Below, piece after piece: positions 5,758 through 50,657 of a stretch of DNA of 64,000 bases (its first letter is position 1; each line of letters opens with the position of its first letter). Source of the DNA: Dehalococcoidia bacterium (GTDB lineage: Bacteria; Chloroflexota; Dehalococcoidia; DSTF01; WHTK01). Position numbers and translations under genes: made by a program. Location of the stretch: positions 1,328 to 65,327 of the forward strand of contig WHTK01000016.1 in the NCBI GenBank assembly GCA_009377745.1. Direction: 5' to 3'. The notes beneath the pieces are model-generated. The model did no database searches. It saw nothing but the letters and a program-made list of their open reading frames with translations, and was not told the DNA's origin.

Positions 5758-5819
5758 ATAGTCCGTTGGTCTATTTCAGTGAAAACCTCTCACCGAAATG
5801 TAAAATCTACCAACGGCTC
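5758..5819. promoter_or_regulatory. Inverted repeat pair TAGACCAACGG / CCGTTGGTCTA (arm-site or operator-like) between integrase start and tRNA fragment
   Basis: agtCCGTTGGTCTAtttc at 5758-5776 and aatcTACCAACGGctca at 5803-5819. An 18-bp exact copy (GAAATAGACCAACGGACT) recurs in inverse orientation at 50557-50574. Confidence 0.35.
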
Positions 5820-5839
5820 AGATGCAAAATCTGGGTAAA

Positions 5840-5896
5840 TGGTGGGCCCTCTGGGATTCGAACCCAGGACCGACGGATTAAGTGTCCGCTGCTCTA
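5840..5896 (-). tRNA. Partial tRNA-Lys-like 3' fragment (T-arm, acceptor 3' strand, CCA; mutated anticodon loop CACTTAA) - att-type remnant
   Basis: Revcomp gives ...TAGAGCAGCGGACACTTAATCCGTCGGTCCTGGGTTCGAATCCCAGAGGGCCCACCA. The 5' part upstream (GGTTCGCGCGGGATGAC) is not tRNA-like. Shares TAGAGCAGCGGAC..TTAA with the tRNA-Lys 5' half at 50621. Confidence 0.5.
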
Positions 5897-6263
5897 GTCA
5901 TCCCGCGCGAACCTGCCTCAAAGGCTGGCGCACGCGAAACCTTTCGACAGTTCCCGCCCGCACCGATCCGGATCGTCTCGCTGAGCTAGAGGATCGCCTA
6001 GCGAGTGCGAGACCGGTCAAGACCGACTAATTCGCGCGATTGGTAGGGAGGAACGAACCTATCCGAGGACCATCGGATCCGGGCCGGTCCGTCTGGTAAT
6101 CCAGCCGTGGCTGATTCCGATGTGTATGCCGAGTCAGGACGGCTGCCATAGAACTAGGAGTCTGACGGTGTCAGGCCGAGGTTCCCATACGAGTGAGGTC
6201 CCTGAGGCCAGCCCCTTAGTCGCGGGGCCGGTTGGCCGTTCCACCAAGACCCTCGGTGACTCG

Positions 6264-6797
6264 CTACCGCTGAGGTACTAGCTGGACACCTGACCCTGCG
6301 ACGAAGGTGATGCGCTTGTCCACCAGCGGTGCCTTCAAAGTGTCCCACACGCCGAGTCCCTGCTTAACGGATAGCGTTAGGTCGCCATCATCGTCGTTCT
6401 TGCCGGAGGTCGTCTCTGTTATGGGCTTGAACGGGAACCGGTAGAGCACTTCCTTCCTCTCGTCGTCAGTGAGGTCGATGAAGGTGCCGTCTACGATGAC
6501 CTGCGGAATGGTGCCAACCGTTCGAAGTGGTTCAGCGACACTTTCTGCATCGGTCGCACCGACTGGTCTGATGATCTCCAGGATGGCGCGTACCAACGCG
6601 ACCTCCAGGTGCTGAACGTTATTGACGATGGTCGCCTGGTGTACCTGAATATCCTGAAGGCCGTGGAAGATCATGTCGCGGGCGTGATCAAGCTCCTGCC
6701 AGAGTCTGATCGGCCACTCACGACTGCGAGTGCATGTTTCATACCGCCCCTTGCGCCACCATGATCGATGCCAGCCAGGTGGTTGCAGACCGCGCAC
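6264..6797 (-). CDS. Hypothetical protein (no recognisable family)
   Basis: 177-aa ORF; no motifs recognised. Confidence 0.3.
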   Translation of the reverse strand: MRGLQPPGWHRSWWRKGRYETCTRSREWPIRLWQELDHARDMIFHGLQDIQVHQATIVNNVQHLEVALVRAILEIIRPVGATDAESVAEPLRTVGTIPQVIVDGTFIDLTDDERKEVLYRFPFKPITETTSGKNDDDGDLTLSVKQGLGVWDTLKAPLVDKRITFVAGSGVQLVPQR

Positions 6798-6824
6798 GCG
6801 GCACGGTCAAACCTGTGAATCCGG

Positions 6825-7190
6825 TTATGAAGAATGTCGCCTACCGCTTCCGCCCGCCGGAATGCCGATCCCGAAAATCCCTGTGGCGAGACCACCAGCA
6901 AAGGCGAGTGAAGCGAATGTCCCTGTTCCTCCTTCGGCAGCAATCAGGCGGCTGCGGAGAATCCCGACGAACCACACGAAAGCCAGGGAGCCCAGCATGA
7001 ACAGCCAGCCTCCCGATATGACGGCGTCCGTGCTCTCCTGGAAGTGGCCAAGGACCTGCTCCGGGGCTTCTTCTGGCACTCCTCCGGGCAGGCCCACGTG
7101 GCCACCCCCGATAATGGCGACCCCGACGACCCACAGCACGACGGCGAGGACGCCGGCAAGCGCGGAAAAGCGCTCGAACCGATCAGACAT
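6825..7190 (-). CDS. Hypothetical membrane protein (2-3 predicted TM helices); C-terminus looks out-of-frame, possibly one frameshifted gene with 6264-6797
   Basis: MSDRFERFSALAGVLAVVLWVVGVAIIGG... hydrophobic segments. Confidence 0.3.
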   Translation of the reverse strand: MSDRFERFSALAGVLAVVLWVVGVAIIGGGHVGLPGGVPEEAPEQVLGHFQESTDAVISGGWLFMLGSLAFVWFVGILRSRLIAAEGGTGTFASLAFAGGLATGIFGIGIPAGGSGRRHSS

Positions 7191-7201
7191 GCGATTCCTC
7201 C

Positions 7202-9569
7202 TTGGTTTCGTTGGTCGGTACCGATGCTAGGTGCGCGGCGCTGCCGGCGGAGAGCCGGATGGCCGGAGACCGAGCGGGGGCTAGCCTCCGTCCTGGCGGG
7301 CGCTGGCCCGGTTGCGCATTTTGGGCGCGCCGGTGGATCATTTGCCGCGTGACAGGATTCCGGCTGGTTCCAATGCTCGCCGCGGTCTTCGCCCTCGCCG
7401 CGACCGTCGGCGGTCTCGTCCTGCTCGTGAGTGAGGGGATCGCCCTCAGCGATCCTGTCGTCGAAGTCGTCGAGACGGGCTTCAGCACCACTCTCATCGG
7501 GCTGCTTCTGCTTTGGCAGCGGCCGGAGAACCGGATGGGCGGCATACTCATGGCCGCCGGGGTCCTCTTCGGGGTATCCACGCTCGCGGCGGGCGTCCTC
7601 GAGTCATCGGCCGGGCCACGGCTCGCAAGTGAGGCTGCCTTTGCGTGGATCTGGCTCGGCCAGGCCCCGCTCGCCCTGGTCTGGGCGCTGACGATCCTGG
7701 CCCTGCCCGATGGGAAGGTAGGAGGCGGGTTGCGGCGCAGCTTCCTGGCCGCGGCGGGCGTCATCTCGATCGGGCTCGCGACCGTCCAGTACGCCTTCGC
7801 GGGACAGGGACGGGTGCCCGAGTTCCCGCCCGCCCGGGCGCCTGCCGATCTGGCTGGACCGCTCGCCCACCTCGGCGGCTTGGAACCGCTCTATCAGTTG
7901 GGACAGGCCTTCTTCCCCGTGCTTCCCTTACTTGCCCTCCTCGGCCTGATCGCCCGCTTCCGTAGTGCCGACCCGGTCGTCCGCCAGCAGCTCAAGTGGG
8001 TGCTGCTCGCCGCGGCCCTGACCGTCCTCGCAAACGTCCTGCGCGTACTCCTTCACGCCGCCGGCGGTAGCCTCGATACGGCGGGCGCTGCCCTTGGTCT
8101 GGCCGCCTCGCCCCTGCCCGCGCTGGGCATCGCCTTCGCCGTCCTCCGCTACCGCCTGTGGGAGCTCGACCTGCTGGTCTCACGCGCCCTCATCTACGGG
8201 TTGCTCTCGTTGACGCTGGCGGCCGTCTTCCTGGCCGTCGCGCTCGCCGTCGGTCTCCTGGCCGGCGGCTCGGGCGTGCTCGTCCCGGTGGCGCTTGCAC
8301 TGCTTGTCGCGCTTGCGGCACAGCCGCTACGGTTGCGGCTGGAGCGGCTCGTGCGACGGCTCATCTACGGAGAGGAGCCGGCCGGCTACGCGGTCGTGGC
8401 CCGCTTCGGTGAAACCCTCACGGAGGCCGCCCGCGCCGGCGAGCTCGCGCCGCAGATCGCCGAGTCGGCGCGACGAGCGCTGCGGACGTCATGGGCTGGC
8501 GTCTGGCTGCGGGTCGAGTCCGGCGCCGCCGCGGCTCTCCGTCCGGCAGCTGTCGCCGGCGCGGACAATGGCGCGTCGGTACTCCTCGAGAAGGACGTCA
8601 TGGCTTGGCTCGCCTGTCTCTCCGGCCCTCTTCTCGCCAACGATGTCGCGTCCCAAGTGAGAGCTGCACTTGATCCCGTTTGGTGGCTGGAGCCGGCCGC
8701 ACTCGCTCCGCTCTCGGCCGGCAACGAACTGGTGGGCATCTTAATCTGCGGGGAGCGCGACGGCCGGCCGCTTGCCGTGCCTGACCTCGAGCTCATCGCC
8801 GTGCTCGCTCGCTCGGCCGCCCTCGCGCTCCGCAACCTGCGGCTCGAGGCCGAGCTCCGCAGCCGCCTTGAGGAGATCGAAGGGCAGGCGGAGGAGCTGC
8901 GCCGCTCACGGCGGCGACTCGTCACCGCCCAGGACACAGAACGCAGACGGATAGAGCGCGACCTCCACGACGGCATTCAGCAGCAACTCGTCAGTCTGGC
9001 AGCGAAGCTGACGCGCGCCTCTCGTTCCGCCCCCACTGAGGCCCAAGGGTTTCTGCGGGAGGCCGCCGCCGGACGCTGAGGAGTCTGTCTTCGCCCTACA
9101 AGAGCTCGCACGCGGCATCTACCCAAGCCTGCTTGCCGACCAGGGGCTCGCCGCCGCGATCCGCACTCACGCGAACCGGCTGCCGGCCGCGGTCCGGGTC
9201 GAGGTCGAGCCCACGCTCGCCGGACAGCGCTTCGGGCGTGAGGTCGAGGCGGCCTTCTACTTCGTCGCGCTTGAGGCGATGGCTAATGCCCAAAAGTATG
9301 CTGCAGAGGCGAGCCTGACTGTCTCGCTCAGAAGCACCGATGACGGAAGGCGCCTCGTCCTCGAGGTCCATGACGATGGCCCCGGCTTCGACCCGCGCCA
9401 CATCACGCACGGCGCGGGCCTCCAGAACATGGCTGACCGTCTCGCCGCTGTTGGCGGTACACTGACCGTGGATAGCCGGCCGGGGGCGGGCGTCTGGGTC
9501 CGCGCCGAGGCGCCGCTGGAGGCGCAGGTCGTGACCCTCAACGGCCGGGCGACTCCCGCAGGTAGATGA
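7202..9569 (+). CDS. Membrane sensor histidine kinase (multi-TM + GAF-like + HisKA_3 + HATPase_c), apparent +/-1 frameshift near 9070
   Basis: 625-aa ORF ends ...DLHDGIQQQLVSLAAKLTRA (HisKA_3 H-box). Kinase continues in another frame: ESVFALQELARGIYPSLLADQGL ... HATPase_c (LEVHDDGPGFDP...GLQNMADRLAAVGGTLTVDS) in ORF 9279-9569. Confidence 0.7.
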
Positions 9570-10224
9570 GCACGGCTGCCACACGCCGGTTGAGGTCGCT
9601 CTCCGGGGCGAGGCCGAGCTTCGAGAAGATCGTCGCGCTGCGCTTCTCCACCGTTCCGACGGAAACGTACAGCGCCTCGGCGATAAGCTTGTTCCCCAGG
9701 CCCTCAGCCATCAGCCGCAGCACATCGAGCTCTGCCGGTGTGAGCTCCGCGAGTGGCGAGCCGGGTTTGCGGGAGCGCTGGGCGAGGAGCTTGTCGACGA
9801 TACGCGGGTCGAGCACGGAGCCGCCGCTGGCCACCTCGCGAATCGCGCGCACGACCTGGTCGATATCCCCCACCCGCACCTTGTGCAGATAGCCGTAGCC
9901 CGCAACGCCGTGCTCGAGCAGCGCCCATACGTACCCTTCGTCGTCGTGCTGGGTCAGGATGACGATGCCGCTCTCGGGAAGCTCCTGCTTGATCACGTGA
10001 GCCGCCTCGATCCCTTCCATCGAATAGGTGGGCGGCATCTTGACGTCCATGAGGACCACGTCGGGTTTCAGCCGCCGCGCCTCGGCGAGGACGCCCTCGT
10101 AGTCAGAGGCCACGCCGACCACATCGAGGCCGCCGTTCTCCTCGAGCAGGCGCCTGGTGCCTTCGCGCATGAGGTACTGGTCCTCAGCGATCAGCACCCG
10201 CAGGCGAGCGTCATCCCGCTTCAC
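9538..10224 (-). CDS. NarL/FixJ-family response regulator (REC + LuxR HTH)
   Basis: LIAEDQYLMREG...DVVLMDVKMP (REC); C-terminal LTPAELDVLRLMAEGLGNKLIAEALYVSVGTVEKRSATIFSKLG (LuxR HTH). Convergent/overlapping with kinase. Confidence 0.85.
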   Translation of the reverse strand: MKRDDARLRVLIAEDQYLMREGTRRLLEENGGLDVVGVASDYEGVLAEARRLKPDVVLMDVKMPPTYSMEGIEAAHVIKQELPESGIVILTQHDDEGYVWALLEHGVAGYGYLHKVRVGDIDQVVRAIREVASGGSVLDPRIVDKLLAQRSRKPGSPLAELTPAELDVLRLMAEGLGNKLIAEALYVSVGTVEKRSATIFSKLGLAPESDLNRRVAAVLIYLRESPGR

Positions 10225-10357
10225 GTCATTCTCCCCACCGCAGTCTCAGGCGGCTGTCAACAGGAAGCCGCAGTTGCTCTTGCTATCGGCCGTCCGCGGA
10301 GGCTGCCAATTCAAACTGCTGTCTCTAAGATAATAGGGAGATTGATGTCGGCCGCGT

Positions 10358-10783
10358 TCACTGCAGCGGCAGTGGCGGCTGCAGGACCGGCGGATCTCCG
10401 CTTACTTCAACGGACTGAACCCACTTGACCCAGTTGTAGCCGCGCCGTCCCGGCGCGACCAGTCGCGCTGGAAAGCCGTGCACCGGGCTGAGCGGCTCGC
10501 CCGCCACCTGAAGGGCCAAGAGCAGACGATCTGCATCATCGAGCCTAAACCGCCGGTCATAACCAGTGACGGATTTGACTATCAGCGAACGCGCCTCGTC
10601 GAGGACACGCGCCTCGGCCAACAGCGTGGAGATGTGTACGCCTTGCCAGTCCTGCCTCGTAAACCAGCCGCCCGTGCAGTCGAGAAGCGCCCGAGTAACT
10701 GAAGACGGCCGCGAGAGCAGGTCATCGTAAGTGAGAACCAGCTCACGGGCGACGTGCCCGCGTATCTGTAGACGCCATGTCAC
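10358..10783 (-). CDS. Sulfite-oxidase-fold molybdopterin oxidoreductase domain (MsrP/YedY-like); GTG start 5 codons after an in-frame TAG
   Basis: LDCTGGWFTRQDWQGVHISTLL...GEPLSPVHGFPARLVAPGRRGYNWVKWVQSVEV. Confidence 0.6.
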   Translation of the reverse strand: MTWRLQIRGHVARELVLTYDDLLSRPSSVTRALLDCTGGWFTRQDWQGVHISTLLAEARVLDEARSLIVKSVTGYDRRFRLDDADRLLLALQVAGEPLSPVHGFPARLVAPGRRGYNWVKWVQSVEVSGDPPVLQPPLPLQ

Positions 10784-10795
10784 CTGATCGATCCG

Positions 10796-11404
10796 CTAGG
10801 TCTTGTCAAGAAACCAATTAGTCACGGGGTGGGCGTTGCCTGTAAAGCTGCCCTCCTCACGGGACCCGGTGAATCTTCTGTCAGCGCCTGAGAGAGAAGC
10901 TAATGCGCTCAGCCCTTCGCTCGTCTGCCAGATGATTGCTCCCGCGAAAGCGCCGGCGAGCGCGCGCAATGCTTGCCGGCGCGCGAGGAAGTCGTCCTTG
11001 CGTGGCGGGAACCAGCGTAGAACGACGTGAAGTACAAGTGGCATGAGAATGGCCAGCGATAGGATTACGTGCATGGTCAGTCCGGTTATCTCTCCGTAAA
11101 GCGGTATGGCGATGCGCGGCAAGCCCGCCGTTGACCAGAGGATCCCAGAGACGAGGGAACCGAGGAACAGCAGTGAGAGCAGGATAGGCAGCGCGGCCCA
11201 GGCACCCCATCGGCGCCGGGCGAATGACCGCAATGCAATGGCCGTCTTCCACGGCACCAACAAGGCAAGTGTCAGACCGCCGACGGCGTGGACCCAGAAT
11301 ACCCAGCGGCCGTCTGGCGTTCCCACCAGAAAGCCGGCGAAGCCGGATACGAACTCAACAGTGACGAGGACGAGGATGGTCAGGTTGACAGCGCGTGCGC
11401 TCAT
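10796..11404 (-). CDS. Polytopic membrane protein; same frame as 10358-10783, separated only by TAG + 4 codons (possible split fusion or two-subunit enzyme)
   Basis: 202 aa, 5-6 hydrophobic helices; ends GNAHPVTNWFLDKT* and reads into the Mo-domain ORF. Confidence 0.5.
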   Translation of the reverse strand: MSARAVNLTILVLVTVEFVSGFAGFLVGTPDGRWVFWVHAVGGLTLALLVPWKTAIALRSFARRRWGAWAALPILLSLLFLGSLVSGILWSTAGLPRIAIPLYGEITGLTMHVILSLAILMPLVLHVVLRWFPPRKDDFLARRQALRALAGAFAGAIIWQTSEGLSALASLSGADRRFTGSREEGSFTGNAHPVTNWFLDKT

Positions 11405-12010
11405 GGCCTTCTCTGGTCAAAGAATACCGCCGAATACCGAGTCAGTCGGCGGAGGTTGATGACCCTGTCGCCTTGCACCTTATGGACACGTCGCGGTTAG
11501 TGGTCAGGTGGGCACACTTCTAGGAGTGGTGATGACTACCGGGCGAAAGAGCGTCCATAAGGAGAACGGCTGACCCCGCGAGCAAGCTCAGTCCAAGAGT
11601 CAGCGGAACCCCGAGACTGGGCAGAAGGGCGAGCACGAGGATAGTGGCAACAAGGCTCGCCGCGGCGAGGCCCAAGAAACGATAGCATATGCGTCTTGTG
11701 GAGGATCAGTCTCGGGCTTCATCGTGGATCACGTCCACGCTTCCAAAACTTCAGCACAGCGCTCTCGAACCGGATGCGCCACTCGTCTTCGAGCCCCACT
11801 TAACCCAAGCACCCGCTTGAGCCGAAACAAATTTAGTCTAATACTAAGTGTTTGTGCACGGCTAAGTAACTTACGGTGGTCTTCAAGAAGCGGCTGGACA
11901 GGATCGAATTTGGCGTTGGATTCAGATGCCTTCGAGGGCAACCTACTCTCTCATCCAGGCCGCGACTGCGAGATAGTCAGATGGAGTGAAGGCCTAGACG
12001 GAGTGAAGGC

Positions 12011-12466
12011 CTAGACGGAGTCCTCACCCGTTTCGGTTATCCTTTCGGCTGCATTGGCGAACTCTTCCAAGCAATTCGTAAGGGCGTCGACCCGTTCCAG
12101 CCCCAGTGCAGCGAACACGGCTTCTATATAAGCTGTGCCCGCAATCGTGATCTCGTCCAGAATCCGCTGTCCTTCGTTCGTCAGTCGTAGCCGGACGATG
12201 CGACGGTCCTTGCTATCGTGGAAGCGCCTCACTAAGCGCTGCTTGACGAGGCGTTCGGCGATACCGGTCAAAGTCGCAGCCCTAATGTGCATCTCCGTAG
12301 CCAGATCTCCAACCGACGGATCTCCGGACTCCCTAATGAGGTAGATCACACGTAGCTGAGGCATGGTCAGGCCACGGCGATCCCAGAACCGTAGGCGGAT
12401 CGGGTCGGCGACGGTCATGGCACGTACATAGGCTCGCAAAGCGCGTTCGTTAGTGGGGTTCGTCAT
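12011..12466 (-). CDS. MarR-family transcriptional regulator
   Basis: LTMPQLRVIYLIRESGDPSVGDLATEMHIRAATLTGIAERLVKQRLVRRFHDSKDRRIVRLRLTNEG. Confidence 0.8.
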   Translation of the reverse strand: MTNPTNERALRAYVRAMTVADPIRLRFWDRRGLTMPQLRVIYLIRESGDPSVGDLATEMHIRAATLTGIAERLVKQRLVRRFHDSKDRRIVRLRLTNEGQRILDEITIAGTAYIEAVFAALGLERVDALTNCLEEFANAAERITETGEDSV

Positions 12467-12948
12467 GTGCCTCGACTTTGATCAGCTGAGCTGGCCTCGG
12501 TCTCGATTCTCTCGAGTGCGGTCAGGACATCGGATAGGTGGCGGCCGATCGCCAGATCATGCCGGATCACCGAACGAATTGTTCCTTCTTTGTCAATAAC
12601 ATACGTAACTCTTGCGATGAGGGAAAGGAAGCCCTGGGCATCGTAGGCCTTCACTATCTGCTTTCTGGGGTCGGCAATGAGAGGAAATTCAAGCGAGTAC
12701 CTCTCTCGAAAGGATCGATGCGACTCCAGCGAGTCCGGGCTAATACCGACAATCACGGCGTCAAACTGCTTAATCGCTTCGTAGTTCACCTGGAAGCTAC
12801 AGGCCTCACGGGTGCAGCCCGCGGTGAAGTCCTTGGGATAGAAGTACAAGACGACGTTTTTCCTGCCTCTAAGGCTTGCCAGGTGGAAAAGCTGGCCATC
12901 ATCGAGCTCGGACTCGAAGTCCGGCGCTTTCGTGCCCTCCTTTAACAT
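12463..12948 (-). CDS. bcp: Thiol peroxidase, Bcp-type peroxiredoxin (AhpC/TSA family)
   Basis: APDFESELDDGQLFHLASLRGRKNVVLYFYPKDFTAGCTREACSF; 4-bp overlap with MarR gene (operon). Confidence 0.8.
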   Translation of the reverse strand: MLKEGTKAPDFESELDDGQLFHLASLRGRKNVVLYFYPKDFTAGCTREACSFQVNYEAIKQFDAVIVGISPDSLESHRSFRERYSLEFPLIADPRKQIVKAYDAQGFLSLIARVTYVIDKEGTIRSVIRHDLAIGRHLSDVLTALERIETEASSADQSRGT

Positions 12949-13449
12949 ATAGGCCTCCCCTGATTCTCCTCTGAAGGCTGAGCAGCCTGTTTCCGGGCGC
13001 CAATCACGTCAGAAGCCCCGTAACACATGGACAGTACTTAGCCTAACAGAAATAGTTAGTGCTACCCTAAGCACAGCAAGACAGGGATGGTGGAAGCAGC
13101 TGTGAACATTTTTGGTAGCCTCTGGACCCGGCGACAAAAGCAAAGGGAGGCTCCCGCGCCAAAGGCGTGTAATCACACAACCCTGATTCCACGCTGGGAT
13201 CGCGTTGAGGACATGGCCCACAATGAACGCGCTTACTTTTTCATTTGTGATTCCTGCGCCCAGATCTTTTCTCCGGACGGAGCACAGAAGCTGCGAAGCG
13301 GCGGCCAAAGTTCAGCTAGCTGAAGTGGTCTTAATGCGCCTAACAAAACCGCGGCGCGAGTAGGCGAGAAAGCAGGATGGTTGCGAGCCATGGGATCGAG
13401 TCGAAGGAACGCCTGGGCGCCACCGGTTTCTCCGAGGGCGGTGAACGCT

Positions 13450-13620: not shown

Positions 13621-13749
13621 GCCCAGCGTGTTCGGCGGTGCGACTGCCGCGCGATCTCGTCGATGCGAGATTCGCGGCCGAAGTGGTTGACAGCGGCGCC
13701 GAGCGATCGGTAGGAGCCGGTTCGCAGCGGGCTCTGCGATACTAGGGAC

Positions 13750-15990: not shown

Positions 15991-16032
15991 GGCCATGCTT
16001 TTCATATCGCCAGCAGGGGAGGCTACCCGGGT

Positions 16033-17292: not shown

Positions 17293-17305
17293 GCGGGAGG
17301 GCCTG

Positions 17306-42901: not shown

Positions 42902-44326
42902 CTATTTCTTCGGCCTGGTGCCCGGCCTGGGTGTGGCGTCCGCCGCAGCCTGAACCTTGCGCTCGTTGGTTGACTTGCCGTTAGCACCGTTCGTCGGCAG
43001 ATGGTAATCATCTACCTCCATCGCCAAAGGGCCGAGCCGCACGACCTCCTCCTCGATTGGCGTGGGTAAGCGGTCATATCCCCGCACCGTGTTGAGGGCA
43101 TCGGAGCCGTCGAGGGTCATCTCGCGTACACGTCCGGCTTCCTGTGCCATCGCCTTGTCGCCGGTGCGTACCAACTCCGCGCCTGCCGCGCCGATGCGCA
43201 TCGCCACGACGGCCTCGGATGGGGCGCCATCCTTGTTCTCGGCCTCCTGGTAGCGGTGGCTGGGCCAGTTGTTCGGTAGCTCCGGGACATGGACCCATTC
43301 GCCGCCGTCGACTAGGCGGAGCGTGGCCGTCTCTTTCAGAACCTGGGTGACGTACTCACGGTTCGTCTCGAAAGTGGCCGGCGTGGGCAAGTCGACACCG
43401 CACAGCTCCTGCGGATCCCTGTTCTCGAGGCGCTTGAGGTGCTCAGCCGCAATGCGGAGCTGCTCAATCTCGAAGCTGAGGAATTGCTCCCAGATGCGCT
43501 TGATGCGAGGGTCGACCTCGGTCATGTAGCAGGTGTAATAGTTGGCGCACTCGTTAAACTCGTGCATCACCCACTTCTCGAGCATCGTCTCTGTTGGGTC
43601 TATGAGCGACTCGTACTGGCTGACGTGCTCTTCCTCAACGGCCGAGATCTCGGCGTAAAGCTGCCGCACTTCCGGTGAGCCGTACGTGTTGCCGACGTTC
43701 TTGTAGTAGTTCCACGTCTGCTGCTCGCCGGCCATCAATGTGAGGGCGTGTGCTTTCGTGATCGGGCTCGCGGTCGCCTTGTCGTAATTCTTGAGGATGC
43801 GCAGGGCAGGATCGTTGTGATGGTCTTGCGTCGGCCGTGCCGGGAAGACATCCGTGCGGCCCTGGAGGATTTCGTTCGGGTCTTTGCCGTGAATGAGGTC
43901 CAGCATCTGACTGTAGCGGTATAGGTGATCGAAGTCCTCTAGCAGGCCAAAGTCGAAGGCCATCTTCACGTAGGGGTCAGGCTCGTGGCGGGCCAGGTAG
44001 GCGGTCAACTCGATTGCCACCTGCTCGAAGGCGATCGTGGTTTCGAGGACGCTCTGATCTGCCGGGTTCAGCCAGTTGATCGTGTTCTGCTGCTGGTGCT
44101 CGATCAGGCGCAGGCGGGCGAGGGTCTGCTTGAGGTCTCGGTCATGGGAGACACGGGCGAAGCTGTGGGAGAACACGCCCGCCTCGACTTCAATGCCGTT
44201 CATGAGGATGACGCGGCAGCGTGTGAACGCGTCCACCTCCTGCTTGAGGAAGGGGGTTTGAGCGACTTCTTTCCAGCTGCGCACCTGGCTCTCTAGAGGA
44301 GTGCCTTTTTCTTTGAAGGGGTTCAT
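42902..44326 (-). CDS. Hypothetical 474-aa protein, possibly ferritin-like/diiron fold (weak)
   Basis: EEEH and E..H-type pairs (ISAVEEEHVSQYESL; ELTAYLARHEP); no firm family. Confidence 0.4.
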   Translation of the reverse strand: MNPFKEKGTPLESQVRSWKEVAQTPFLKQEVDAFTRCRVILMNGIEVEAGVFSHSFARVSHDRDLKQTLARLRLIEHQQQNTINWLNPADQSVLETTIAFEQVAIELTAYLARHEPDPYVKMAFDFGLLEDFDHLYRYSQMLDLIHGKDPNEILQGRTDVFPARPTQDHHNDPALRILKNYDKATASPITKAHALTLMAGEQQTWNYYKNVGNTYGSPEVRQLYAEISAVEEEHVSQYESLIDPTETMLEKWVMHEFNECANYYTCYMTEVDPRIKRIWEQFLSFEIEQLRIAAEHLKRLENRDPQELCGVDLPTPATFETNREYVTQVLKETATLRLVDGGEWVHVPELPNNWPSHRYQEAENKDGAPSEAVVAMRIGAAGAELVRTGDKAMAQEAGRVREMTLDGSDALNTVRGYDRLPTPIEEEVVRLGPLAMEVDDYHLPTNGANGKSTNERKVQAAADATPRPGTRPKK

Positions 44327-44543
44327 TGTGAAACTCCTGGGTTGTAGTGAACTCAGGGTACGCGTGGGCTCCGATCAGGCTTATCGTTTCCCTCTTTCTA
44401 AGCATCAACGCGTGCTTACAATCATGCTGCCGGGAAACGATGATGCTCGTACATGCCGATGTCGGCGTAGACGAAGGCCAGAGTCCCACGTTCGAACACT
44501 GGAAGTCGGTGGTTTTCAAATCGCAGTCGACTTCTATGTCAAA

Positions 44544-45020
44544 TCACCACCGTGAAAGCCGACCGCGCTCCCTTCCGAGAAGCTTCTGCACTGCTTGCCA
44601 TCGTTCCGTAGGGGGCAATTCCAGCAGTCGTCGCAGGTCGCGCTCGCCCACCGTCGGTGAAGTCAACGGATCTCCCAAGCACCTCACAGCGTTGATGACC
44701 TCCGGAGTGAGGTGCAGGAGGGCGAGTACCTGCGTAACCCTGGCGCGGGAAACGCCGAGTGCTCGCGCAAGCTCAGCCCTTGATTTCACTTCCCCGCCGA
44801 TGATTCGGTCCTGCCACTCCTCGGCCAGAACAATGGGGTTACGCCGCTCGGGTTTGGGCTTGCTCGGCTCCGCAAGACGCAGCCGAGAAACCGTAGCGGC
44901 AGCATGGTCCTCAAACTCGAAATGCATTCCAGACTTGGAACGCTTGTAGAATGACCGGAGCGTTGCGAATACGCTTAGCTTCAGGAGAGTTCGGGTGTTC
45001 ACCCGGCTCGCGGAGCCACA
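44544..45020 (-). CDS. ParB-HTH-only protein - repeat-module copy 3 (long ORF runs to 45278; likely GTG start near 45015)
   Basis: VNTRTLLKLSVFATLRSFYKRSKS...KPERRNPIVLAEEWQDRIIGGEVKSRAELARALGVSRARVTQVLALLHLTPEVINAVRCLGDP. Upstream palindrome + divergent leader ATGACTCAGGACAAAGG at 45048. Confidence 0.6.
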   Translation of the reverse strand, partial: CGSASRVNTRTLLKLSVFATLRSFYKRSKSGMHFEFEDHAAATVSRLRLAEPSKPKPERRNPIVLAEEWQDRIIGGEVKSRAELARALGVSRARVTQVLALLHLTPEVINAVRCLGDPLTSPTVGERDLRRLLELPPTERWQAVQKLLGRERGRLSRW

Positions 45021-45445
45021 TAATACATATGTTCTAACAGGCAGGGAATGACTCAGGACAAAGGTCGTCGCTCTCCGAAGATGGCGCTGCGGATGGTATT
45101 GCCGGTTCTCGATCCTCCTCTGTCCAGAACCATCCTTGATGAACGGCAAGAGAAGCAGCCCCCTTTCGAAATCCGACAAACTCCAGGGCAGCGAAGACAA
45201 GAACAAGAAGCGAGCAGCTCCGTAATTTGACTCTGCCCCTTGGGTTGCCCTCGAAAGCGGAAGCCTTCGCCAAGACATAGTGACCTAATCAGCTTTTCGT
45301 TATATGTTCTCCGATGCCCTGCCTCTCACGGCCCTTGGGAGAATCGCGCTGGGCTGATCATCGCGGCAAGGCCGGTAGGGGTAACGACCGACCGGCTGGT
45401 CGTCACCCCTACCGGCCAACGGAAGGACGATCCCCGGGCGATCGG

Positions 45446-48400
45446 TCAGGGCGGCCCGCCCTGTACCGCCACGATAAGAGTGTCCTCGTTGTTAGAGAGG
45501 TCCGGATCGTCCGTCGAGCTGGAGACCGTCGCAGTGTTGGGTACGTCTCCGAATGCACCCTTCACCTTGATGAAGATAAAGAACTCCGTGCTCTCTCCCG
45601 CCTCCAGTACACCGAGGTCACAGGTCAAAGTCCTCGGCGCCTCGAAGATGCAGCCGCCCGTGTCCGACTCGTAGACCATCTTCTTGTCATCGAGCAGCTG
45701 ATCCACTAGTAAGACGTTCTGAGCATCCGAAGACCCCAGGTTGGTGACCGTCACCCTGTAGGTGATGGTTGTGTTCGGTTTGTACGTCGCGGCGTCTGAC
45801 GTCTTGACGACCTCTAGGTCAGCTTCCGCCTCCACGTCGACCGGCACGCTGTCGTTGTTGTTGCTGTTGTCCGGGTCACCCGTGTCGGAAGAGACGCGCG
45901 CCTGGTTGAACAAGATCGTTCCGTCAGGGGTATCGGCCCTAACGTCTGCCACGACGGTGATGACTTCTACGTCGCCGCTGGCCAGGTTGCCCATGTTGCA
46001 CGTGAGCGGCAGCAGCGGGTCACCGGGCACGCCAGCGTTGCATGTGTTGCCGGGTGAGCTCACAGATACGTTCGTCAGCTCGGCCGGCAAGTCATCGCGA
46101 ACCTCCACGGCCTGTGCGGTCGAAGGACCGTCGTTGGTGACGGTGATCGTATAGGTGAGCTCCTCACCGGCGGTGACAGGATCGGGCGATGCCGTCTTGT
46201 CCAGGCTCAGGTCAGCCCCAGCAGCGAAGGTCACTCGGCCGATAGCAATGTTGTTGGAGTTGTCCGGGTCAGGCGTTTCGCTCGAAACGGTGGCCGTGTC
46301 GTCCACGTCGCCGGGCTCATCCGCCGTGAACGTGACCGTAATGGTGTCGCGCGCGCCTGCCGGCAGGACATCGTCCTCACAGGTGATCGTGATCTCGGTG
46401 TCCGGGCCGATCGGCGTCGCCGGAGAACAGCTCGCCGCTGGGCCCTCGGTCGAGCTCGACGTGATGCCCGTGACCGTTATCGGGGTCGTGCTGATAATCT
46501 GGTCAGTTATGACTACGTCGCGAGCGTCTGATGGGCCAAGGTTGTCGACGTAAATGTCACAGAACGTCTCGGTCCCAGCGGGCGCCGCGTTGGGCTGGTC
46601 AGGCTTACACTCCTTGGTAATCCGCAAGTCTGCGGATTCGATGACGTTCGTGCTGATGGTGACGGAGTTGTCCTCCGGGTTTGCGTCCTCCTGATCGGAG
46701 TCAACGCTGGCGGTATTGCCGATGCTGGTTGTGGCGACGTCCAGATTGGCCAGCAGGCTGGCGTCAACGCGCACCTGGATCGTGAAGGACGTGTTGCCGC
46801 CGCCAGCTAGGTTGCCGATGCTACACGTGAGCGTCAGAGCCGGGGCTTCAACACAGCTGTCGGAGTCGGCGATGTAGGTGACACCGGACGGCAATGTGTC
46901 GGTAACAACGGCGTTGGTGGCGGTGTTACCACCGTTATTGGTCACGTCGACTGTGTAGGTAAGGATTTCGCCCGCAACCACCGGGTCGGGCGAGTCCGTC
47001 TTATTGATCGACAGGTCCACCTGGTTGCACGAGGGGAAGCGGAAAGCGCCGATGCGAGTACCCCAGGCGCCACCGGTAGGCTGCCCGACCAGCGGGTTGT
47101 TGGTTATGTACTGGTTGACGTACCAGAAGGTGCAATTGTCCACGGGGTCCACGCGCATCGCCGAGTAGTCACCCCAGCGGCTTCCATTCACGATCTGGGA
47201 GTCCTGGCCGTTCACGAGCACGAACTCGCCGTTGGGCGGGGCGCCCTGAGGCATGAGGCCGAGGGGGTCGCCTGCCAGACGACCAACGTAGGCGACGCCT
47301 GGGAAGATCGTGTTGCCATCGGAGATGCTGTAGCCGAGCGCCATGTTGCCTGCCTTGTCCATGGCGATGCTACCCATCCAGCGGTGAGGGTCGTCGGCGA
47401 AGCCGGGGTTACCGGCGTCTGGTGAATGGGTCGCCTGCTGGCGAATGAACCAACCCGCGCCCTCATCACGCAACTCGTACCAGCGAACGCCGGCGTGGTC
47501 GGCGCCGTCGACATCGACGGTGTGGTTGAAGACAAGCGTCGCGTAATCGCCGAAATCCCGGTACTGAAGCGGTCCCATCGCCCAGTGGGTCAGCGTCTCC
47601 AGGAGCACGCCACCCGTGGGCTGAGGTACGCAGTTGTTGAACAGGTTGGTGCCGTTGCACAAATCGGAGTCGAAGGCTGCCGTGGCAAGTGAGGGCAGCG
47701 GGGTGAAGGAGGAGTTGGTCGGGTCGCCCCAGTCGACGCTAAAGGCCCTCAGGTCTACCCGGTCGGCACCGCCCCAAAGGTCGCCGTCGACGTGTCGGGC
47801 GAAGATGTTTGGCGTTCCGGGAGGCGGCGCCGGGCCGTCCAGGTCGCTCGGCAGCCAGATCAGGGCAGGCGACCCGCTGGTGAACGCCTGGAAAGTCGCC
47901 GGGTTACCATTGAGCATGTTGGCCCGGTCGAAAACGACGGCGTTGAGGCTGCCGCCGGAGAAGCCCTGCTGGGAGCTCATGTAGTATCCGTCCGGCCAAA
48001 GGCCGATCTTCGGATAATCGTGCCCGAAGTTGAAAACGAACTCGTATAGATACCAGCCGCCGTTCACTGGATCTGCGGTCTGGGAGATGGCGATACACTG
48101 AGCAGTCGGCGGTGTAGCGAAGCCATTCGGAACCGCGAACTGGCTCATCAGCCAACGGTCTGCTAGATGGTCATATACGACGTATGGATCGCCATTGTTG
48201 TTGTTCAAGCAAAGGTTGCCGACGCCAGCGTTGACCCATAGCGAATTGATGTTGAAGGGACCGGCTGCATTGCCACCCTGCTTATCAAAAATCTGGAACT
48301 GCGAGTTTACCATCTCGATGTAGTGATTGGGACCCACGTCACCTACCGGGTCCGGTGGCACGAATCCCGTGTAGGGGATGCCGTCGAAGTTCGGGTTGGC

Positions 48401-48727
48401 GTTGGCAAATTCCGCAGGCGTCACCGCCGCGCCGTCGAGAGTAGTCGGCGCGAGGGCTCCGTCTCCGGTCGGACCTGGGGAGGGTCTGTCCACGGTACCA
48501 GGCAAGATCCCCTGCGTTCTCTGGATACCGGGAGTCTGCCTGTCAACGACCACAGGTGGGAGCACATGGACGTTGCCGTCGAACATCCCAGGCGTTACCG
48601 GATCGCTAACGAAAGGCCCTGGTTGCTGCGCCCGCGCCTCAGGAGCGCCATCAGTCAGAAATGAGGCGCAGATGATAAAGAGCAGAATGAGACCGATTTG
48701 ACCGGAGAAAGATCGCAAAGGCTTCAT
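45446..48727 (-). CDS. Giant secreted protein with N-terminal globular region and multiple C-terminal DUF11 (conserved-repeat) domains
   Basis: Signal peptide MKPLRSFSGQIGLILLFIICASF; at least 4 repeats of ...DKT(D/A)SPDPV.AGE.LTYT(V/I)(D/T)VTN.G...A. Confidence 0.75.
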   Translation of the reverse strand: MKPLRSFSGQIGLILLFIICASFLTDGAPEARAQQPGPFVSDPVTPGMFDGNVHVLPPVVVDRQTPGIQRTQGILPGTVDRPSPGPTGDGALAPTTLDGAAVTPAEFANANPNFDGIPYTGFVPPDPVGDVGPNHYIEMVNSQFQIFDKQGGNAAGPFNINSLWVNAGVGNLCLNNNNGDPYVVYDHLADRWLMSQFAVPNGFATPPTAQCIAISQTADPVNGGWYLYEFVFNFGHDYPKIGLWPDGYYMSSQQGFSGGSLNAVVFDRANMLNGNPATFQAFTSGSPALIWLPSDLDGPAPPPGTPNIFARHVDGDLWGGADRVDLRAFSVDWGDPTNSSFTPLPSLATAAFDSDLCNGTNLFNNCVPQPTGGVLLETLTHWAMGPLQYRDFGDYATLVFNHTVDVDGADHAGVRWYELRDEGAGWFIRQQATHSPDAGNPGFADDPHRWMGSIAMDKAGNMALGYSISDGNTIFPGVAYVGRLAGDPLGLMPQGAPPNGEFVLVNGQDSQIVNGSRWGDYSAMRVDPVDNCTFWYVNQYITNNPLVGQPTGGAWGTRIGAFRFPSCNQVDLSINKTDSPDPVVAGEILTYTVDVTNNGGNTATNAVVTDTLPSGVTYIADSDSCVEAPALTLTCSIGNLAGGGNTSFTIQVRVDASLLANLDVATTSIGNTASVDSDQEDANPEDNSVTISTNVIESADLRITKECKPDQPNAAPAGTETFCDIYVDNLGPSDARDVVITDQIISTTPITVTGITSSSTEGPAASCSPATPIGPDTEITITCEDDVLPAGARDTITVTFTADEPGDVDDTATVSSETPDPDNSNNIAIGRVTFAAGADLSLDKTASPDPVTAGEELTYTITVTNDGPSTAQAVEVRDDLPAELTNVSVSSPGNTCNAGVPGDPLLPLTCNMGNLASGDVEVITVVADVRADTPDGTILFNQARVSSDTGDPDNSNNNDSVPVDVEAEADLEVVKTSDAATYKPNTTITYRVTVTNLGSSDAQNVLLVDQLLDDKKMVYESDTGGCIFEAPRTLTCDLGVLEAGESTEFFIFIKVKGAFGDVPNTATVSSSTDDPDLSNNEDTLIVAVQGGPP

Positions 48728-48995
48728 CGATCACTCCTTTGATTGGCGCGAGGCGCCTCTACGGGATAATTCCCAATGCATGGACGAGCACGATCCGGAC
48801 TATAATCGCTCTACCAGATCTATTCAAGAAGCGTTGAGAGGAGACGAAAAAGTATCTCATTTTTGTAACGCAATCGAAGAGGCGTAAGCCCGGGGTCGGC
48901 CATAAGGTGCGGAGGCTTAGCCTCGGTCGCGGCAGGTGACACGGGAAGTCGACCGGAGGATAACGCCGGTGGGTAGTCAGGAGGAAGCCAAAGCC

Positions 48996-49745
48996 TTATT
49001 GGTCAATAATCACGAACTCGTCGGACAGGATGCTGACGACCTGGTCTGAAGTCTCAAAGATGACCTCTATCCGATAGGTGCCAGCACTTATGGGAGCGTC
49101 CAGCAGGCTGAAGGGGACACCGCCTTCTGACCGAGGAGAATCCTCAGGGAGTATCCCCTGGGGTACCTCCGTCGCAGGCAAGCGTGCGGCAGGTGGCTCA
49201 GTGGGGATAGTGCGCAAATCCTGGTCGAACTTTCCAGCGCTGGACGGGCCGCCCAGGATCGGTTGGGGGACCCCGATGAAGCCCGTGAGGGTCCCATCAG
49301 GAGCGATGAAGTAAGGCGATAGAACGCCCGGCGAAGTACACTCCAACTCGGTCCAACCGCTACCATCCTGGCGCCAGATTTTGGCGACAACGCACTGACT
49401 TCCTTCCCCGGGAACACGGATGGCCTCCGCTAGTTCATTGCGGATTGTCACCTTGATCTCTTCACCTTCCTGATATTGCTGCTTGTCCAGCAAAACGCTG
49501 ACAGGACTGGCTACCGGTTGCGAGGCGCTCGTTGTCGGTCCGGGTGTGCCCGCTGGGAGCAGTGGAATGCTGGTTGCCTTCGGCGTCGCGGTCGCTATGC
49601 TCTCGAGAGTGGGTCTGTCAGTCTCGCCTTCAGGCTCACTCTCTCCCAGAGCAGAGGAGCATGCGAACGCCATTGCTACGGATAGCAGAAGGATAGCAAG
49701 CTGTAGCTGTCTCATCTCCGATGCCTCCTCCTTCACGTCTAGCAT
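48996..49745 (-). CDS. Secreted hypothetical protein
   Basis: Signal peptide MRQLQLAILLLSVAMAFACSSALG (lipobox-like). Confidence 0.45.
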   Translation of the reverse strand: MLDVKEEASEMRQLQLAILLLSVAMAFACSSALGESEPEGETDRPTLESIATATPKATSIPLLPAGTPGPTTSASQPVASPVSVLLDKQQYQEGEEIKVTIRNELAEAIRVPGEGSQCVVAKIWRQDGSGWTELECTSPGVLSPYFIAPDGTLTGFIGVPQPILGGPSSAGKFDQDLRTIPTEPPAARLPATEVPQGILPEDSPRSEGGVPFSLLDAPISAGTYRIEVIFETSDQVVSILSDEFVIIDQ

Positions 49746-49924
49746 ATCGCAGCCGGTTCGAAATCATCGCGGCCGCCGGGCGCTCGAGATCCTAATCTAG
49801 AGACGTAGAATCCTTGTCGAAGGTTCCCAGACGCAGATGGCAGGCCGCGTGGACAAACGCAACCTCTCGGCGGCAGGGTGGGTCCGCGAAACCGCATTTT
49901 TCGCGTACCAAGGCAGGTCGCAGA

Positions 49925-50412
49925 GTTCATGGCCTTGAGACATGGGATTCCTTCTTCTCTCTGCTCATCAACTGCGAACGATGCAAGCCCTCTAAGCGCC
50001 TTTTCACTAACAGACCGGGCATCGGATCGCCTAGCGCCCTAACCTTGTCATTCACATCCACAGCGAGGTGAGCAGGGTCAGCGTTTGGGTCACGCGGGCA
50101 CGGGAGACGCCGAGCGTTCGGGCGAGATCAGCCTTTGAGCGCACCCCGCCGTCGGCGAGGCCGTCGCTGCCACTCCTCGGCCAGGACGATGGGGTTACGC
50201 TGCTCGCGCTTGGGCTTGACCGGCTCCCTGAGAACAAGCCGTGGTGCCGTACGTGCGGCGAGATCGCCAAACTCGAACTGCGGTGATGACTTGGAGCGCT
50301 TGTAGAATGACCTGAGCGTCGCGAATACGCTAACCTTCAGGAGAGTTCGGGGTTTCACTCGGCTCGGGGAGCCAATATAACACAGATGTTCTAAAATGAC
50401 CGCGATGCTCAA
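49925..50412 (-). pseudogene. ParB-HTH-only gene - repeat-module copy 4, frameshifted
   Basis: ORF 50128-50412 gives VKPRTLLKVSVFATLRSFYKRSKSSPQFEFGD...KPKREQRNPIVLAEEWQRR then garbage. ORF 50052-50270 in another frame gives ...KADLARTLGVSRARVTQTLTLL. The 3' region is about 90% identical at nt level to 23506-23700. Confidence 0.5.
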
Positions 50413-50556
50413 GAACCTTGATGATCAGCAACCTCATGGGAAGACACGTCAAGACCAGGCGCACGCGGTCGCGCCGTCAGTTGCCGGGGGAGTCGTCTCG
50501 CTAGCGTCTGCCTGACCAACGGCCGCAAACGGTTGTAAACTCTCCAGAGAGCGGCC

Positions 50557-50574
50557 GAAATAGACCAACGGACT
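50557..50574 (+). repeat. 18-bp box GAAATAGACCAACGGACT, exact inverted copy of 5758-5775
   Basis: Direct comparison of both loci; both lie next to tRNA-Lys-like fragments. Confidence 0.6.
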
Positions 50575-50620
50575 TACGTCGAAGTCCCACGGTGGCGCGG
50601 CCGTCTCAGATTCAAAACAG

Positions 50621-50657
50621 GGGCCTCTAGCTCAGCGGTAGAGCAGCGGACTTTTAA
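50621..50657 (+). tRNA. 5' half of a tRNA-Lys(UUU) gene (acceptor 5' strand, D-arm, anticodon stem 5' strand and loop CTTTTAA); 3' half absent locally
   Basis: GGGCCTCTAGCTCAGCGGTAGAGCAGCGGACTTTTAA then non-tRNA sequence. Combining with the 3' fragment at 5840-5896 reconstitutes a nearly canonical cloverleaf (one C-A mismatch in acceptor). Confidence 0.55.

Follow-up and report, generated by a model that had tools for sequence, protein, structure and literature searches.

The integrase gene and the tRNA-Lys-like pieces

The window (the whole 64-kb stretch of DNA analysed here) carries the gene of a tyrosine integrase, a tRNA-Lys-like 3' piece next to it and, far off on the other strand, a tRNA-Lys 5' half. 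The features of the locus are as follows:

4661..5719, minus strand: tyrosine recombinase/integrase, Xer-like (longest open reading frame; the annotated MPZ49588.1 starts at 5680)
5721..5839, minus strand: P' arm between core and integrase gene, conserved in relatives
5840..5896, minus strand: tRNA-Lys-like 3' piece of 57 nt, from the D-stem 3' strand to CCA, loop CACTTAA
5897..5978, minus strand: 82-nt unrelated insert between the 3' piece and a 5' remnant
5979..5992, minus strand: tRNA-Lys 5' remnant of 14 nt, CCTCTAGCTCAGCG, an exact 14-mer match to 50624-50637
5897..50620, no strand assigned: segment between the junctions, presumed inverted block (Pfam scans, self-BLAST)
50513..50591, plus strand: P-arm-like flank, box2 (50557-50574) followed by TACGTCGAAGTCCCACG, matching the upstream flank of the related locus L062
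50606..50621, minus strand: inverted copy of a motif normally 3' of the tRNA, CCTGTTTTGAATCTGA, a 16/16 match to L011 83-98
50621..50657, plus strand: tRNA-Lys(UUU) 5' half, spanning the acceptor 5' strand through the anticodon loop
50658..50716, no strand assigned: non-tRNA sequence joined to the loop (CCTCCTGGTGCGG...) and a hairpin, without similarity to a tRNA 3' half

The integrase appears intact. As first described, the open reading frame at 4661-5719 adjoins the 3' piece and encodes a tyrosine integrase: it matches the Pfam profile Phage_integrase (PF00589) at 1e-35 over profile positions 4-171 of 172, and candidate catalytic motifs (TGLRRAE, HLLRH, GHS and RYSH) are found in the translation, the deposited protein beginning at MAM. 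NCBIfam profiles place it as XerC/XerA/XerD-like at scores below the family cut-offs, and an arm-binding N-domain is not detectable. A Dehalococcoidia MAG contig of 66,554 nt encodes an identical protein, P0241; as a query against genome contigs the integrase returned only relatives at 24-33%. A metagenome scan yielded eight loci (three with usable sequence upstream of the integrase gene), and a megablast of window positions 1-25000 against plasmids returned nothing.

The distal piece (50621-50657, +) reads GGGCCTC TA GCTC AGCGGTA GAGC A GCGGA CTTTTAA and is indeed the clean tRNA-Lys(UUU) 5' half that the preliminary description reported: its sequence ends with the anticodon loop, the likeness to tRNA stopping exactly past the loop, and from CTAGC on it is identical to the contiguous tRNA-Lys of L036. 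The matching 3' half reported at 5840-5896 is also present (5896-5840, -; TAGAGCAGCGGACACTTAATCCGT...AGGGCCCACCA), with 55/57 identity to the intact tRNA-Lys of L011 and L012, but its loop had been misread as a mutated UUU loop. CACTTAA, which carries A33, is one change away from the CUU-type loop CTCTTAA, and the sibling L062 has CTCTTA; the loop is therefore not simply a mutated UUU loop. ARAGORN calls the two joined halves tRNA-Lys(ttt), in keeping with the near-canonical cloverleaf claimed for them, but the A33 of the 3' piece and the C.A at 7:66 depart from it. Pairing GGGCCTC of the 5' half with AGGGCCC of the 3' piece gives U6.G67 and the C7.A66 mismatch, and the anticodon types differ (UUU in the 5' half vs CUU-like in the 3' piece), so that the two are not simply halves of one recent gene.

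On the integrase side, the 14-nt remnant CCTCTAGCTCAGCG stands 82 nt upstream of TAGAGC and shares the T6/C7 variant with the distal 5' half. The intervening 82 nt have no similarity elsewhere in the window or in related loci, and when they are removed ARAGORN calls a tRNA-Lys(ctt) at this locus. An intron reading of this pseudo-tRNA and its insert was rejected, the RNA fold being no better than that of shuffles (z = -0.45). Over the whole 64 kb as it stands, ARAGORN and Rfam (gathering threshold) call no tRNA.

The two ends of the segment carry recombination sites in inverted orientation, namely the tRNA core stretch (TAGAGCAGCGGAC..TTAA) and an 18-bp box, and both junctions retain the same 20 nt, TAGAGCAGCGGACnnTTAA. 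The box copies, at 5760-5777 and 50557-50574, are 18/18 identical; the distal copy had been placed exactly and the proximal one 2 nt off, at 5758-5775. The box is close to the reverse complement of tRNA positions 38-50, GACCGACGGATT. The P' arm is made up, in order, of the tRNA-downstream motif, box1 GAAATAGACCAACGGACT (5777-5760), TCTCGCGTTGGCCAC and the near-palindrome CGTGAAGTTCACG (5742-5730). At the distal end, 50513-50591 shows 78% identity over 81 nt (E = 1e-7) to the flank immediately upstream of the contiguous L062 core, and box2 with its flanks is 22/24 identical to box1 of L036. The motif at 50606-50621 directly adjoins the 5' half at its 5' end; it belongs to a stretch that, aligned with L062, appears as an insertion of about 23 nt and has no counterpart there. 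When the non-tRNA flanks of the two junctions were compared, short matches scored no better than shuffles, and the 82-nt insert and the junction flanks gave only box and flank matches against all related loci. Chance is not a plausible origin of the tRNA pieces, the box and the integrase features.

The sequence after 50657 shows no similarity to a tRNA 3' half; a perfect 35-nt hairpin follows at 50682-50716 and is probably the terminator of the convergent MBL-rhodanese gene. The distal junction, of TTAA with CCTCC, is real: it is reproduced at 100% over 7,346 nt in an independent Logan assembly, in a contig (L061) that ends exactly 30 nt into the tRNA. Between the junctions, 5897-50620 holds ordinary regulatory, transport, redox and metal-resistance genes, many of them truncated, together with tRNA-Gly att relics and 4/5 copies of an HTH gene family; repeats within the 45 kb are only 70-86% identical by self-BLAST. 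Since the tRNA-Gly att relics of the window are both inverted and direct, the region has been rearranged repeatedly. The idea that the 45 kb are themselves a mobile element is not supported by the Pfam scans, which found no mobility genes in the segment, the single integrase sitting outside it.

A contiguous module in related loci

In nearly all relatives of the integrase a contiguous tRNA lies some 150 nt upstream, with the same box after it. L062, the closest of the sibling contigs that have an upstream flank, matches the window in three blocks: 2307-2385 with 50513-50591 (+), 2394-2431 with 50623-50659 (+) and 2411-3633 with 5896-4671 (-), the last at 94.5% and with homology beginning exactly at 5896. 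One 1.4-kb module of L062 thus corresponds to window 50513-50659 (+) followed by 5896-4671 (-), and as that module is contiguous, the two pieces of the window were formerly joined. The tRNA-like core of L062 is already a pseudogene and the sibling integrase genes are frameshifted. With a sibling core that is already a pseudo-tRNA, and halves that mismatch in anticodon type and acceptor stem, the reading of a working tRNA-Lys that was split is not supported.

Related loci compared for an intact tRNA-Lys have the contiguous module in L036, L011, L012 and L006, L062 having a contiguous pseudo-tRNA core. A tRNA-Lys(ttt) lies upstream of the integrase gene, on the same strand and with the same box, in L006, L011 and L012; L036 also has a contiguous tRNA-Lys upstream of the integrase gene and the same box, and its contig begins inside the tRNA, hence no ARAGORN call. 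In eight further loci (L019-L021 and L027-L031) the upstream tRNA is a tRNA-Leu(taa). The target tRNAs have the anticodon stem GCGGA/TCCG in common, and the box copies this stem. The P' arm is conserved in L062, L036, L011, L012 and L006, and in the tRNA-Leu loci too, with a co-varying box. That the box is a product of the event in the window is not supported: all relatives have it next to the integrase gene as a conserved arm element, and a diverged copy lies upstream of the L062 core. Judged by sequence, then, the integrase-adjacent 'tRNA-Lys' is the core of an Xer-like integrase attachment module, whose order is P arm and box, tRNA-like core, P' arm with the same box, and integrase gene.

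In L008 a tRNA-Arg(UCU)-like 5' half ends 3 nt past the anticodon loop, beside a homologous integrase; together with the break in the window, this makes the loop edge a recurrent breakpoint in this integrase family. We looked for an attR, a direct repeat of the tRNA 3' part, and found none within 7-21 kb at 11 related loci, where the contigs may be too short. A small cassette, with the integrase gene inside a tRNA-Arg(UCU), was considered because L008 has a 5' half before the gene and L035 and L036 have a 3' fragment behind it; it was rejected, as no such 3' fragment follows the integrase gene in L008, L011, L006 or the window. The box as the true attP core, as in tRNA-dependent lysogeny, was discarded as well: the relatives keep an intact tRNA and 60-100 nt before the box. 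A search of viral contigs with a 17-mer of the P' arm gave 24 hits, none with the box upstream, i.e. chance or unrelated matches.

Origin of the separated pieces

The region is full of mobile-element debris, and what we see in it is most likely the scar of a DNA inversion. We lean, with rather modest confidence, towards an inversion of chromosomal DNA, one breakpoint of which lay in the att core; the adjacent integrase is the most likely agent, and the pieces are the relics left behind. The cut in the module fell within the core, somewhere from the D-loop to where the anticodon loop ends. The left part of the module, P arm and 5' half, is now found 44.7 kb off and pointing the other way, which is the signature of an inversion, and the inverted orientation noted from the outset is indeed what an inversion through the att core leads one to expect. 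As for the crossover proposed for the anticodon region, the break lies, more widely, within the stretch from the D-loop to the anticodon loop of a module that is contiguous in L062, L036, L011, L012 and L006. Of the two joints predicted for the un-inverted state, that of flank, core, P' arm and integrase gene is contiguous in L062, and the other would join 5897 onwards with 50658 onwards and was not met with in the relatives compared, a point against the inversion. The integrase may have acted on the core and on a secondary or relic site, and at least one later small change probably followed (the 82-nt insert, the loop substitutions, the loss of the distal 3' half). Both pieces are non-functional relics. 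The same 20 nt at both junctions call for a partner itself derived from a tRNA-Lys, or for a staggered break; 20 nt would not be duplicated if the exchange were conservative and the secondary site random, which counts against a simple inversion. The 5' remnant on the integrase side and the lack of a 3' half at the distal junction are two further points against a single inversion.

It is conceivable, although we consider it unlikely, that the pieces are not reciprocal products but two independent relics, left by two oppositely oriented module copies, or by an attL together with a second att junction, with a different part lost or scrambled in each copy. The differing loop types and mispairing acceptor strands would fit such an origin, as would an integrase-side locus that has its own 5' remnant and strictly lacks nothing; several other att relics lie nearby in both orientations, and in the related locus L009 two family integrases surround one tRNA-Lys. 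However, both breakpoints lie in one 20-nt stretch of the 1.4-kb module, the pieces together rebuild the exact L062 arrangement (flank, core, P' arm, integrase gene) and no second integrase gene or P' arm remnant is found alongside the distal piece. Less probable still is an inversion made without the integrase, by short-homology, illegitimate or replication-associated recombination, for example through staggered breaks in structured tRNA-like DNA. Such a process would account for the 20-nt duplication, for the 82-nt filler at one junction and for partner DNA without a recognisable core; against it, the distal break coincides with the 3' edge of the anticodon loop, just as L008 shows, and an apparently intact integrase gene stands beside the core. 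An assembly chimera at a conserved tRNA/att sequence is improbable. The contig was assembled from a metagenome, near-identical modules occur in metagenomes in several sibling strains, and the Logan contig end 30 nt into the tRNA indicates a graph branch; against this, a different assembler gives the distal junction base for base, the sequence shared across either junction is 13-18 nt at the most and k-mer mis-joins would need more, and the interior repeats are only 70-86% identical.

The same contig end implies a second sequence in the same sample that shares the 5' half as far as the loop end, over at least 30-31 nt, and diverges past TTAA. This, the apparently intact integrase, the inverted copies of core and box at both ends and the ARAGORN call for the joined halves are what would speak for a programmed reversible switch, or for a functional split tRNA with halves joined at the DNA or RNA level, a reading to which we give hardly any credence. 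There is an overlap of 20 nt between the pieces, A33 stands in the loop of the 3' piece and the 7:66 pair is C.A; the 3'-piece leader GTCATCCCGCGCG, when reverse-complemented, has no match in the 5'-half trailer CCTCCTGGTGCGG, nor is that trailer complementary to the leader ...GCGCGGGATGAC. The pieces of the window are not a functional split tRNA. The pseudogene core and frameshifted integrase genes of the siblings weigh against a switch too, and 45 kb of housekeeping-type genes are unlike known switches. It is very improbable that the integrase still flips the 45-kb block, with both orientations in the population and one of them rebuilding a contiguous tRNA-Lys-like gene; if it did, a Dehalococcoidia chromosome would hold a very large invertible segment driven by an integrase.

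Returning to the inversion through the att core, it would mean that an attachment site can serve as a chromosomal breakpoint in Dehalococcoidia, which are known for plastic genome regions beside tRNA and tmRNA genes. From the comparison there also emerges a compact and uncharacterised module of an Xer-like integrase, ordered as box, tRNA-like core, box and integrase gene, and the members compared here adjoin a tRNA-Lys, a tRNA-Leu or a tRNA-Arg(UCU)-like 5' half with the anticodon stem in common. Annotators are cautioned to take half-tRNAs beside integrases as att scars, and to expect that inversions at att sites in MAG contigs can be real. Only if the reversible reading were confirmed would the locus bear on how split tRNA genes arose.

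Comparison with known systems

In the split tRNAs of Nanoarchaeum and Caldivirga, the halves lie far apart, have a complementary leader and trailer, do not overlap and form a perfect tRNA, and an archaeal splicing endonuclease is at work. The window resembles them in a 5' half that ends at the anticodon loop and a 3' part encoded far off, but lacks the complementary leader and trailer, the non-overlap, the perfect tRNA and a host with an archaeal splicing endonuclease. Williams is said to have classified, in 2002, the tyrosine-integrase islands and prophages in tRNA genes, including an anticodon-loop sublocation. As in such elements, tRNA and integrase gene share a strand, the gene coming directly downstream, a tRNA copy from the D/anticodon arm to CCA is carried by the element, a symmetric anticodon stem forms the core and tRNA fragments are left as scars. 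Unlike them, the window has an Xer-like integrase without a detectable arm-binding domain, accessory boxes that are copies of the core half-site rather than a distinct arm-type sequence, no attR repeat within 10 kb in the relatives (whose contigs may be too short), and a broken core with parts inverted.

Partial tRNA gene fragments in prokaryotic genomes have been described as non-functional pieces that annotation may mistake for genes (PMC9897764); the two pieces here differ in that a sibling contig links them to one module. In the tRNA-dependent lysogeny of mycobacteriophages, attP and attB share only about 10 bp and a phage-encoded tRNA compensates for the loss (PMC10865867). Integration at the anticodon of a tRNA-Lys, without rebuilding of the tRNA and with disruption of the host gene, leaves junctions that the 5' half of the window and L008 resemble, but the module in the window has a near full-length tRNA-like core and no compensating tRNA is found in the window.

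A precedent lies in the Thermococcales, where the integrase Int pTN3 inverts DNA between tRNA genes (PMC5495485). As there, the inversion proposed for the window is large, with breakpoints in oppositely oriented tRNA/att sequences, and the tyrosine integrase of a mobile element is the proposed agent, one that was tested in the case of pTN3. Int pTN3 is archaeal and SSV-type and recombines paralogous tRNA genes over their full length, or sequences with 100 bp of identity or more, leaving the genes intact (PMC5495485), whereas the shared stretch in the window is only 13+4 nt and the products are half-genes. This kind of event is already known.

The two tRNA-Lys pieces and their joint ancestor

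The preliminary description of a tRNA-Lys 5' half and 3' half, each beside an 18-bp box in inverse orientation and with a tyrosine integrase next to the latter, was borne out, except that its first box coordinate was 2 nt off:

50621-50657 (+): tRNA-Lys 5' half, GGGCCTC TA GCTC AGCGGTA GAGC A GCGGA CTTTTAA
5896-5840 (-): tRNA-Lys 3' piece, TAGAGCAGCGGACACTTAATCCGTCGGTCCTGGGTTCGAATCCCAGAGGGCCCACCA
5992-5979 (-): 14-nt 5' fragment on the integrase side, CCTCTAGCTCAGCG, 82 nt upstream of TAGAGC
5760-5777 (-) and 50557-50574 (+): 18-bp box, GAAATAGACCAACGGACT
4661-5719 (-): tyrosine recombinase ORF (Pfam Phage_integrase, 1e-35)

The likeness of the 5' half to a tRNA ends directly past the anticodon loop, and the 3' piece is identical at 55 of 57 positions to the corresponding stretch of the relatives' intact tRNA-Lys genes. 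Neither ARAGORN nor Rfam at the gathering score reported a tRNA in the 64-kb window, the sole Rfam match under relaxed thresholds being sub-threshold and tRNA-Gly-like (24760-24832). Joined, the halves are called tRNA-Lys(ttt) by ARAGORN, but the near-canonical cloverleaf proposed for them contains a C7.A66 mismatch between acceptor strands GGGCCTC (5' half) and AGGGCCC (3' piece). The 3' loop does read CACTTAA, one change away from the CUU-type CTCTTAA (leaving A at position 33, normally an invariant U); the loop of the 5' half is of the UUU type. Given the search space, such a 14-nt fragment would match by chance at that place and strand with a likelihood of ~1e-5, and removal of 82 nt from the integrase-side locus yields an ARAGORN call of tRNA-Lys(ctt); no relatives of this 82-nt insert were found and its fold is nothing unusual.

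The closest sibling contig with upstream flank, L062, bears one contiguous module that matches both pieces:

L062 2307-2385: window 50513-50591 (+), 78%, E = 1e-7
L062 2394-2431: window 50623-50659 (+)
L062 2411-3633: window 5896-4671 (-), 94.5%

Homology extends from ~110 nt upstream of the core to the integrase stop codon, and the L062 integrase fragment (P0245), which is frameshifted, departs from the window protein at ~3 of 130 residues. This contiguity indicates that what flanks the window's 5' half on the left and its 3' piece on the right was formerly one 1.4-kb unit, in the order box2 flank, tRNA-like core, P' arm and integrase gene; in the window it is severed within the core, its left part lying 44.7 kb off and inverted. 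L062 thus supports the proposed recombination through the att core, either leading on to inversion or itself the inversion, but not the splitting of a working tRNA: its core, with a 6-nt loop (CTCTTA) and an unpaired acceptor (ARAGORN output 'tRNA-???'), is a pseudo-tRNA.

The integrase family and its attachment modules

The window integrase is full length and looks intact; several sibling copies are frameshifted. NCBIfam searches found it XerC/XerA/XerD-like, under family cut-offs, and detected no arm-binding domain. It is identical to MPZ49588.1, and the MBL-rhodanese protein (50783-52057) to MPZ49627.1, both encoded on one Dehalococcoidia MAG contig of 66,554 nt. Four sibling genes in the P0001 cluster, found in different samples, are cut short: P0245 and P0247 share the terminus ...RSCNL after MPKLEE, and P0244 and P0248 terminate ...MRASCQ/SASCQ, which suggests recurrent or inherited frameshifts and integrase decay in the lineage.

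Members of this metagenomic family are 60-96% identical and, where upstream DNA exists, a contiguous tRNA lies ~120-200 nt upstream of the integrase gene on the same strand. tRNA-Lys(UUU) occupies this position in L006, L011, L012 and L036 (uncalled by ARAGORN in the last because the contig starts within it), and tRNA-Leu(UAA) in the loci of integrases P0011 and P0014. The P' arm, common to all relatives with upstream DNA, consists of a GAATCTG motif, the box (A)TAGACC(A/G)ACGGACT and then TCTCGCGTTGGCCACCGTGAAG. The box approximates the reverse complement of tRNA positions 38-50 (GACCGACGGATT) and varies with the target tRNA (AGAGCACCGGACTT in L008, GCAGCGGACTT in the tRNA-Leu locus L027, GCGAGCGGACTT in L020). 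We infer that it is a putative extra core-type binding site, which would fit a Xer-like enzyme lacking an arm-binding domain.

Other arrangements occur in the family. The closest relatives, L035 (1120-1175) and L036 (1272-1324), carry a tRNA-Arg(UCU) 3' fragment, from anticodon stem to CCA, directly past the integrase stop codon, exactly where the window departs from both; the fragment is absent after the window integrase. In L008, the 5' half of a UCU-anticodon tRNA (9806-9848, ending 3 nt past the loop) precedes a P' arm that has the tRNA's own AGAGCACCGGACTT as its box, and then a homologous integrase adjoining HSP70-like, kinase and TrwB/DUF87 genes. With no 3' half in 21 kb, the target tRNA of this member is apparently disrupted. 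In L009 (8577-11026), one intact tRNA-Lys lies between two family integrases, one of them downstream as usual; the other (P0008), in divergent orientation, has its P' arm fused to the tRNA-Lys 5' end, a topology resembling window 50606-50621.

The intervening 45 kb and its surroundings

Pfam scans of the ~45 ORFs found ordinary genes, many truncated or frameshifted (histidine kinases, LuxR/MarR regulators, MFS transporters, sulfite reductase, P-type ATPase, ChrB, peroxiredoxins, methyltransferases and a DUF11 surface protein), and neither a second integrase nor genes of phage or conjugation type. A mobile segment, as once suggested, is not recognisable in it. It does contain tRNA-Gly pieces:

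14739-14860 (-), 19521-19749 (+), 23285-23468 (+): conserved tRNA-Gly(UCC) 3'-part unit, 120-230 nt, anticodon arm to CCA; one copy inverted, one cut in the T-loop
24760-24861 (+): degenerate full-length tRNA-Gly (Rfam 22.7 bits, cut-off 29)

These pieces resemble att relics from another element family, one without an integrase in the window. Such relics in both orientations indicate that the neighbourhood was rearranged more than once. The motif TTTACCCAGATTT(T) follows the CCA of the tRNA-Lys piece (5826-5839, -) and of two tRNA-Gly pieces (19726-19739, +; 24838-24850, +), occurs past tRNA-Lys in L062 and L036 too, and may be a downstream element common to both att families.

Five diverged copies of a small HTH gene (23506-23955, 34097-34576, 44544-45278, 49954-50412 and 56714-56836, all -; 70-86% DNA identity; weak matches to HTH_ParB and phrog_14161 'recombinase') may be cargo or regulators of decayed elements; the 50-kb copy, frameshifted, adjoins the box2 flank; of the 56.7-kb copy no more than a fragment is present. 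The whole has the look of a plasticity zone in decay, with frameshifted or truncated loci at 50783-52139, 3065-4162, 28955-29803, 53448-54070 and 13796-14422: an MBL-rhodanese in two frames in the window and in an independent Logan contig, a PHP-domain protein with an out-of-frame tail, an enolase reduced to its C-terminal half, pieces of peroxiredoxin and a MoCoBD_2 fragment. About 7 kb from the distal junction, a 140-aa ORF (57398-57820, +) retains of an IS481-type transposase only the N-terminal part with HTH and leucine zipper, and probably represents an IS remnant. Two oppositely oriented ChrB_N-domain genes (27396-27965, +; 29896-30423, -) bracket the truncated enolase together with a Na/Ca exchanger, and may be a further local inverted duplication.

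Origin of the arrangement

We favour, with moderate confidence, an inversion through the integrase att core, which would have left both pieces as a relic. The distal break coincides exactly with the 3' edge of the anticodon loop and, together with the end of the L008 half, marks the loop region as a recurrent exchange point; this favours integrase action. An inversion without the integrase is rather improbable. A single conservative exchange is at odds with three observations: both junctions have kept an identical 20-nt sequence, TAGAGCAGCGGACnnTTAA; the distal one lacks a 3' half; and the 5' half is directly preceded by the tRNA-downstream motif in inverted copy (16 nt), in a ~23-nt stretch aligning as an insertion against L062. 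The history was thus probably multi-step, or the break non-conservative. Under conservative exchange, the shared TAGAGCAGCGGACnnTTAA would imply a partner itself derived from tRNA-Lys, as the sequence of the integrase-side 5' remnant also hints.

Two independent relics, with which the differing loops might agree, are unlikely beside the single L062 module. A chimeric assembly is very improbable: Logan contig L061 (SRR10173838, 7,346 nt) agrees with window 50628-57973 at 100% identity, so that a different assembler reproduced the joint TTAA|CCTCC. L061 terminates exactly 30 nt into the tRNA, where we infer a branch in the assembly graph; another sequence in SRR10173838 would then share this 5'-half stretch and diverge after TTAA. 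Least credible is a reversible switch or functional split tRNA, for all that the joined halves are called as tRNA-Lys: the L062 core, the loop types, C7.A66 and the 5' fragment at the integrase side all speak against a working split gene. The archaeal split-tRNA layout is likewise not followed, since no complementarity was found between the 5'-half trailer and the 3'-piece leader.

Integrases that target tRNA genes are commonplace, as are the tRNA-fragment scars that they leave. Int pTN3 of Thermococcales has been shown to catalyse inversion between tRNA genes (PMC5495485), and integration that fails to rebuild tRNA-Lys is known in mycobacteriophages (PMC10865867). The arrangement described here belongs with these events, within a Xer-like family of Dehalococcoidia that has yet to be characterised.
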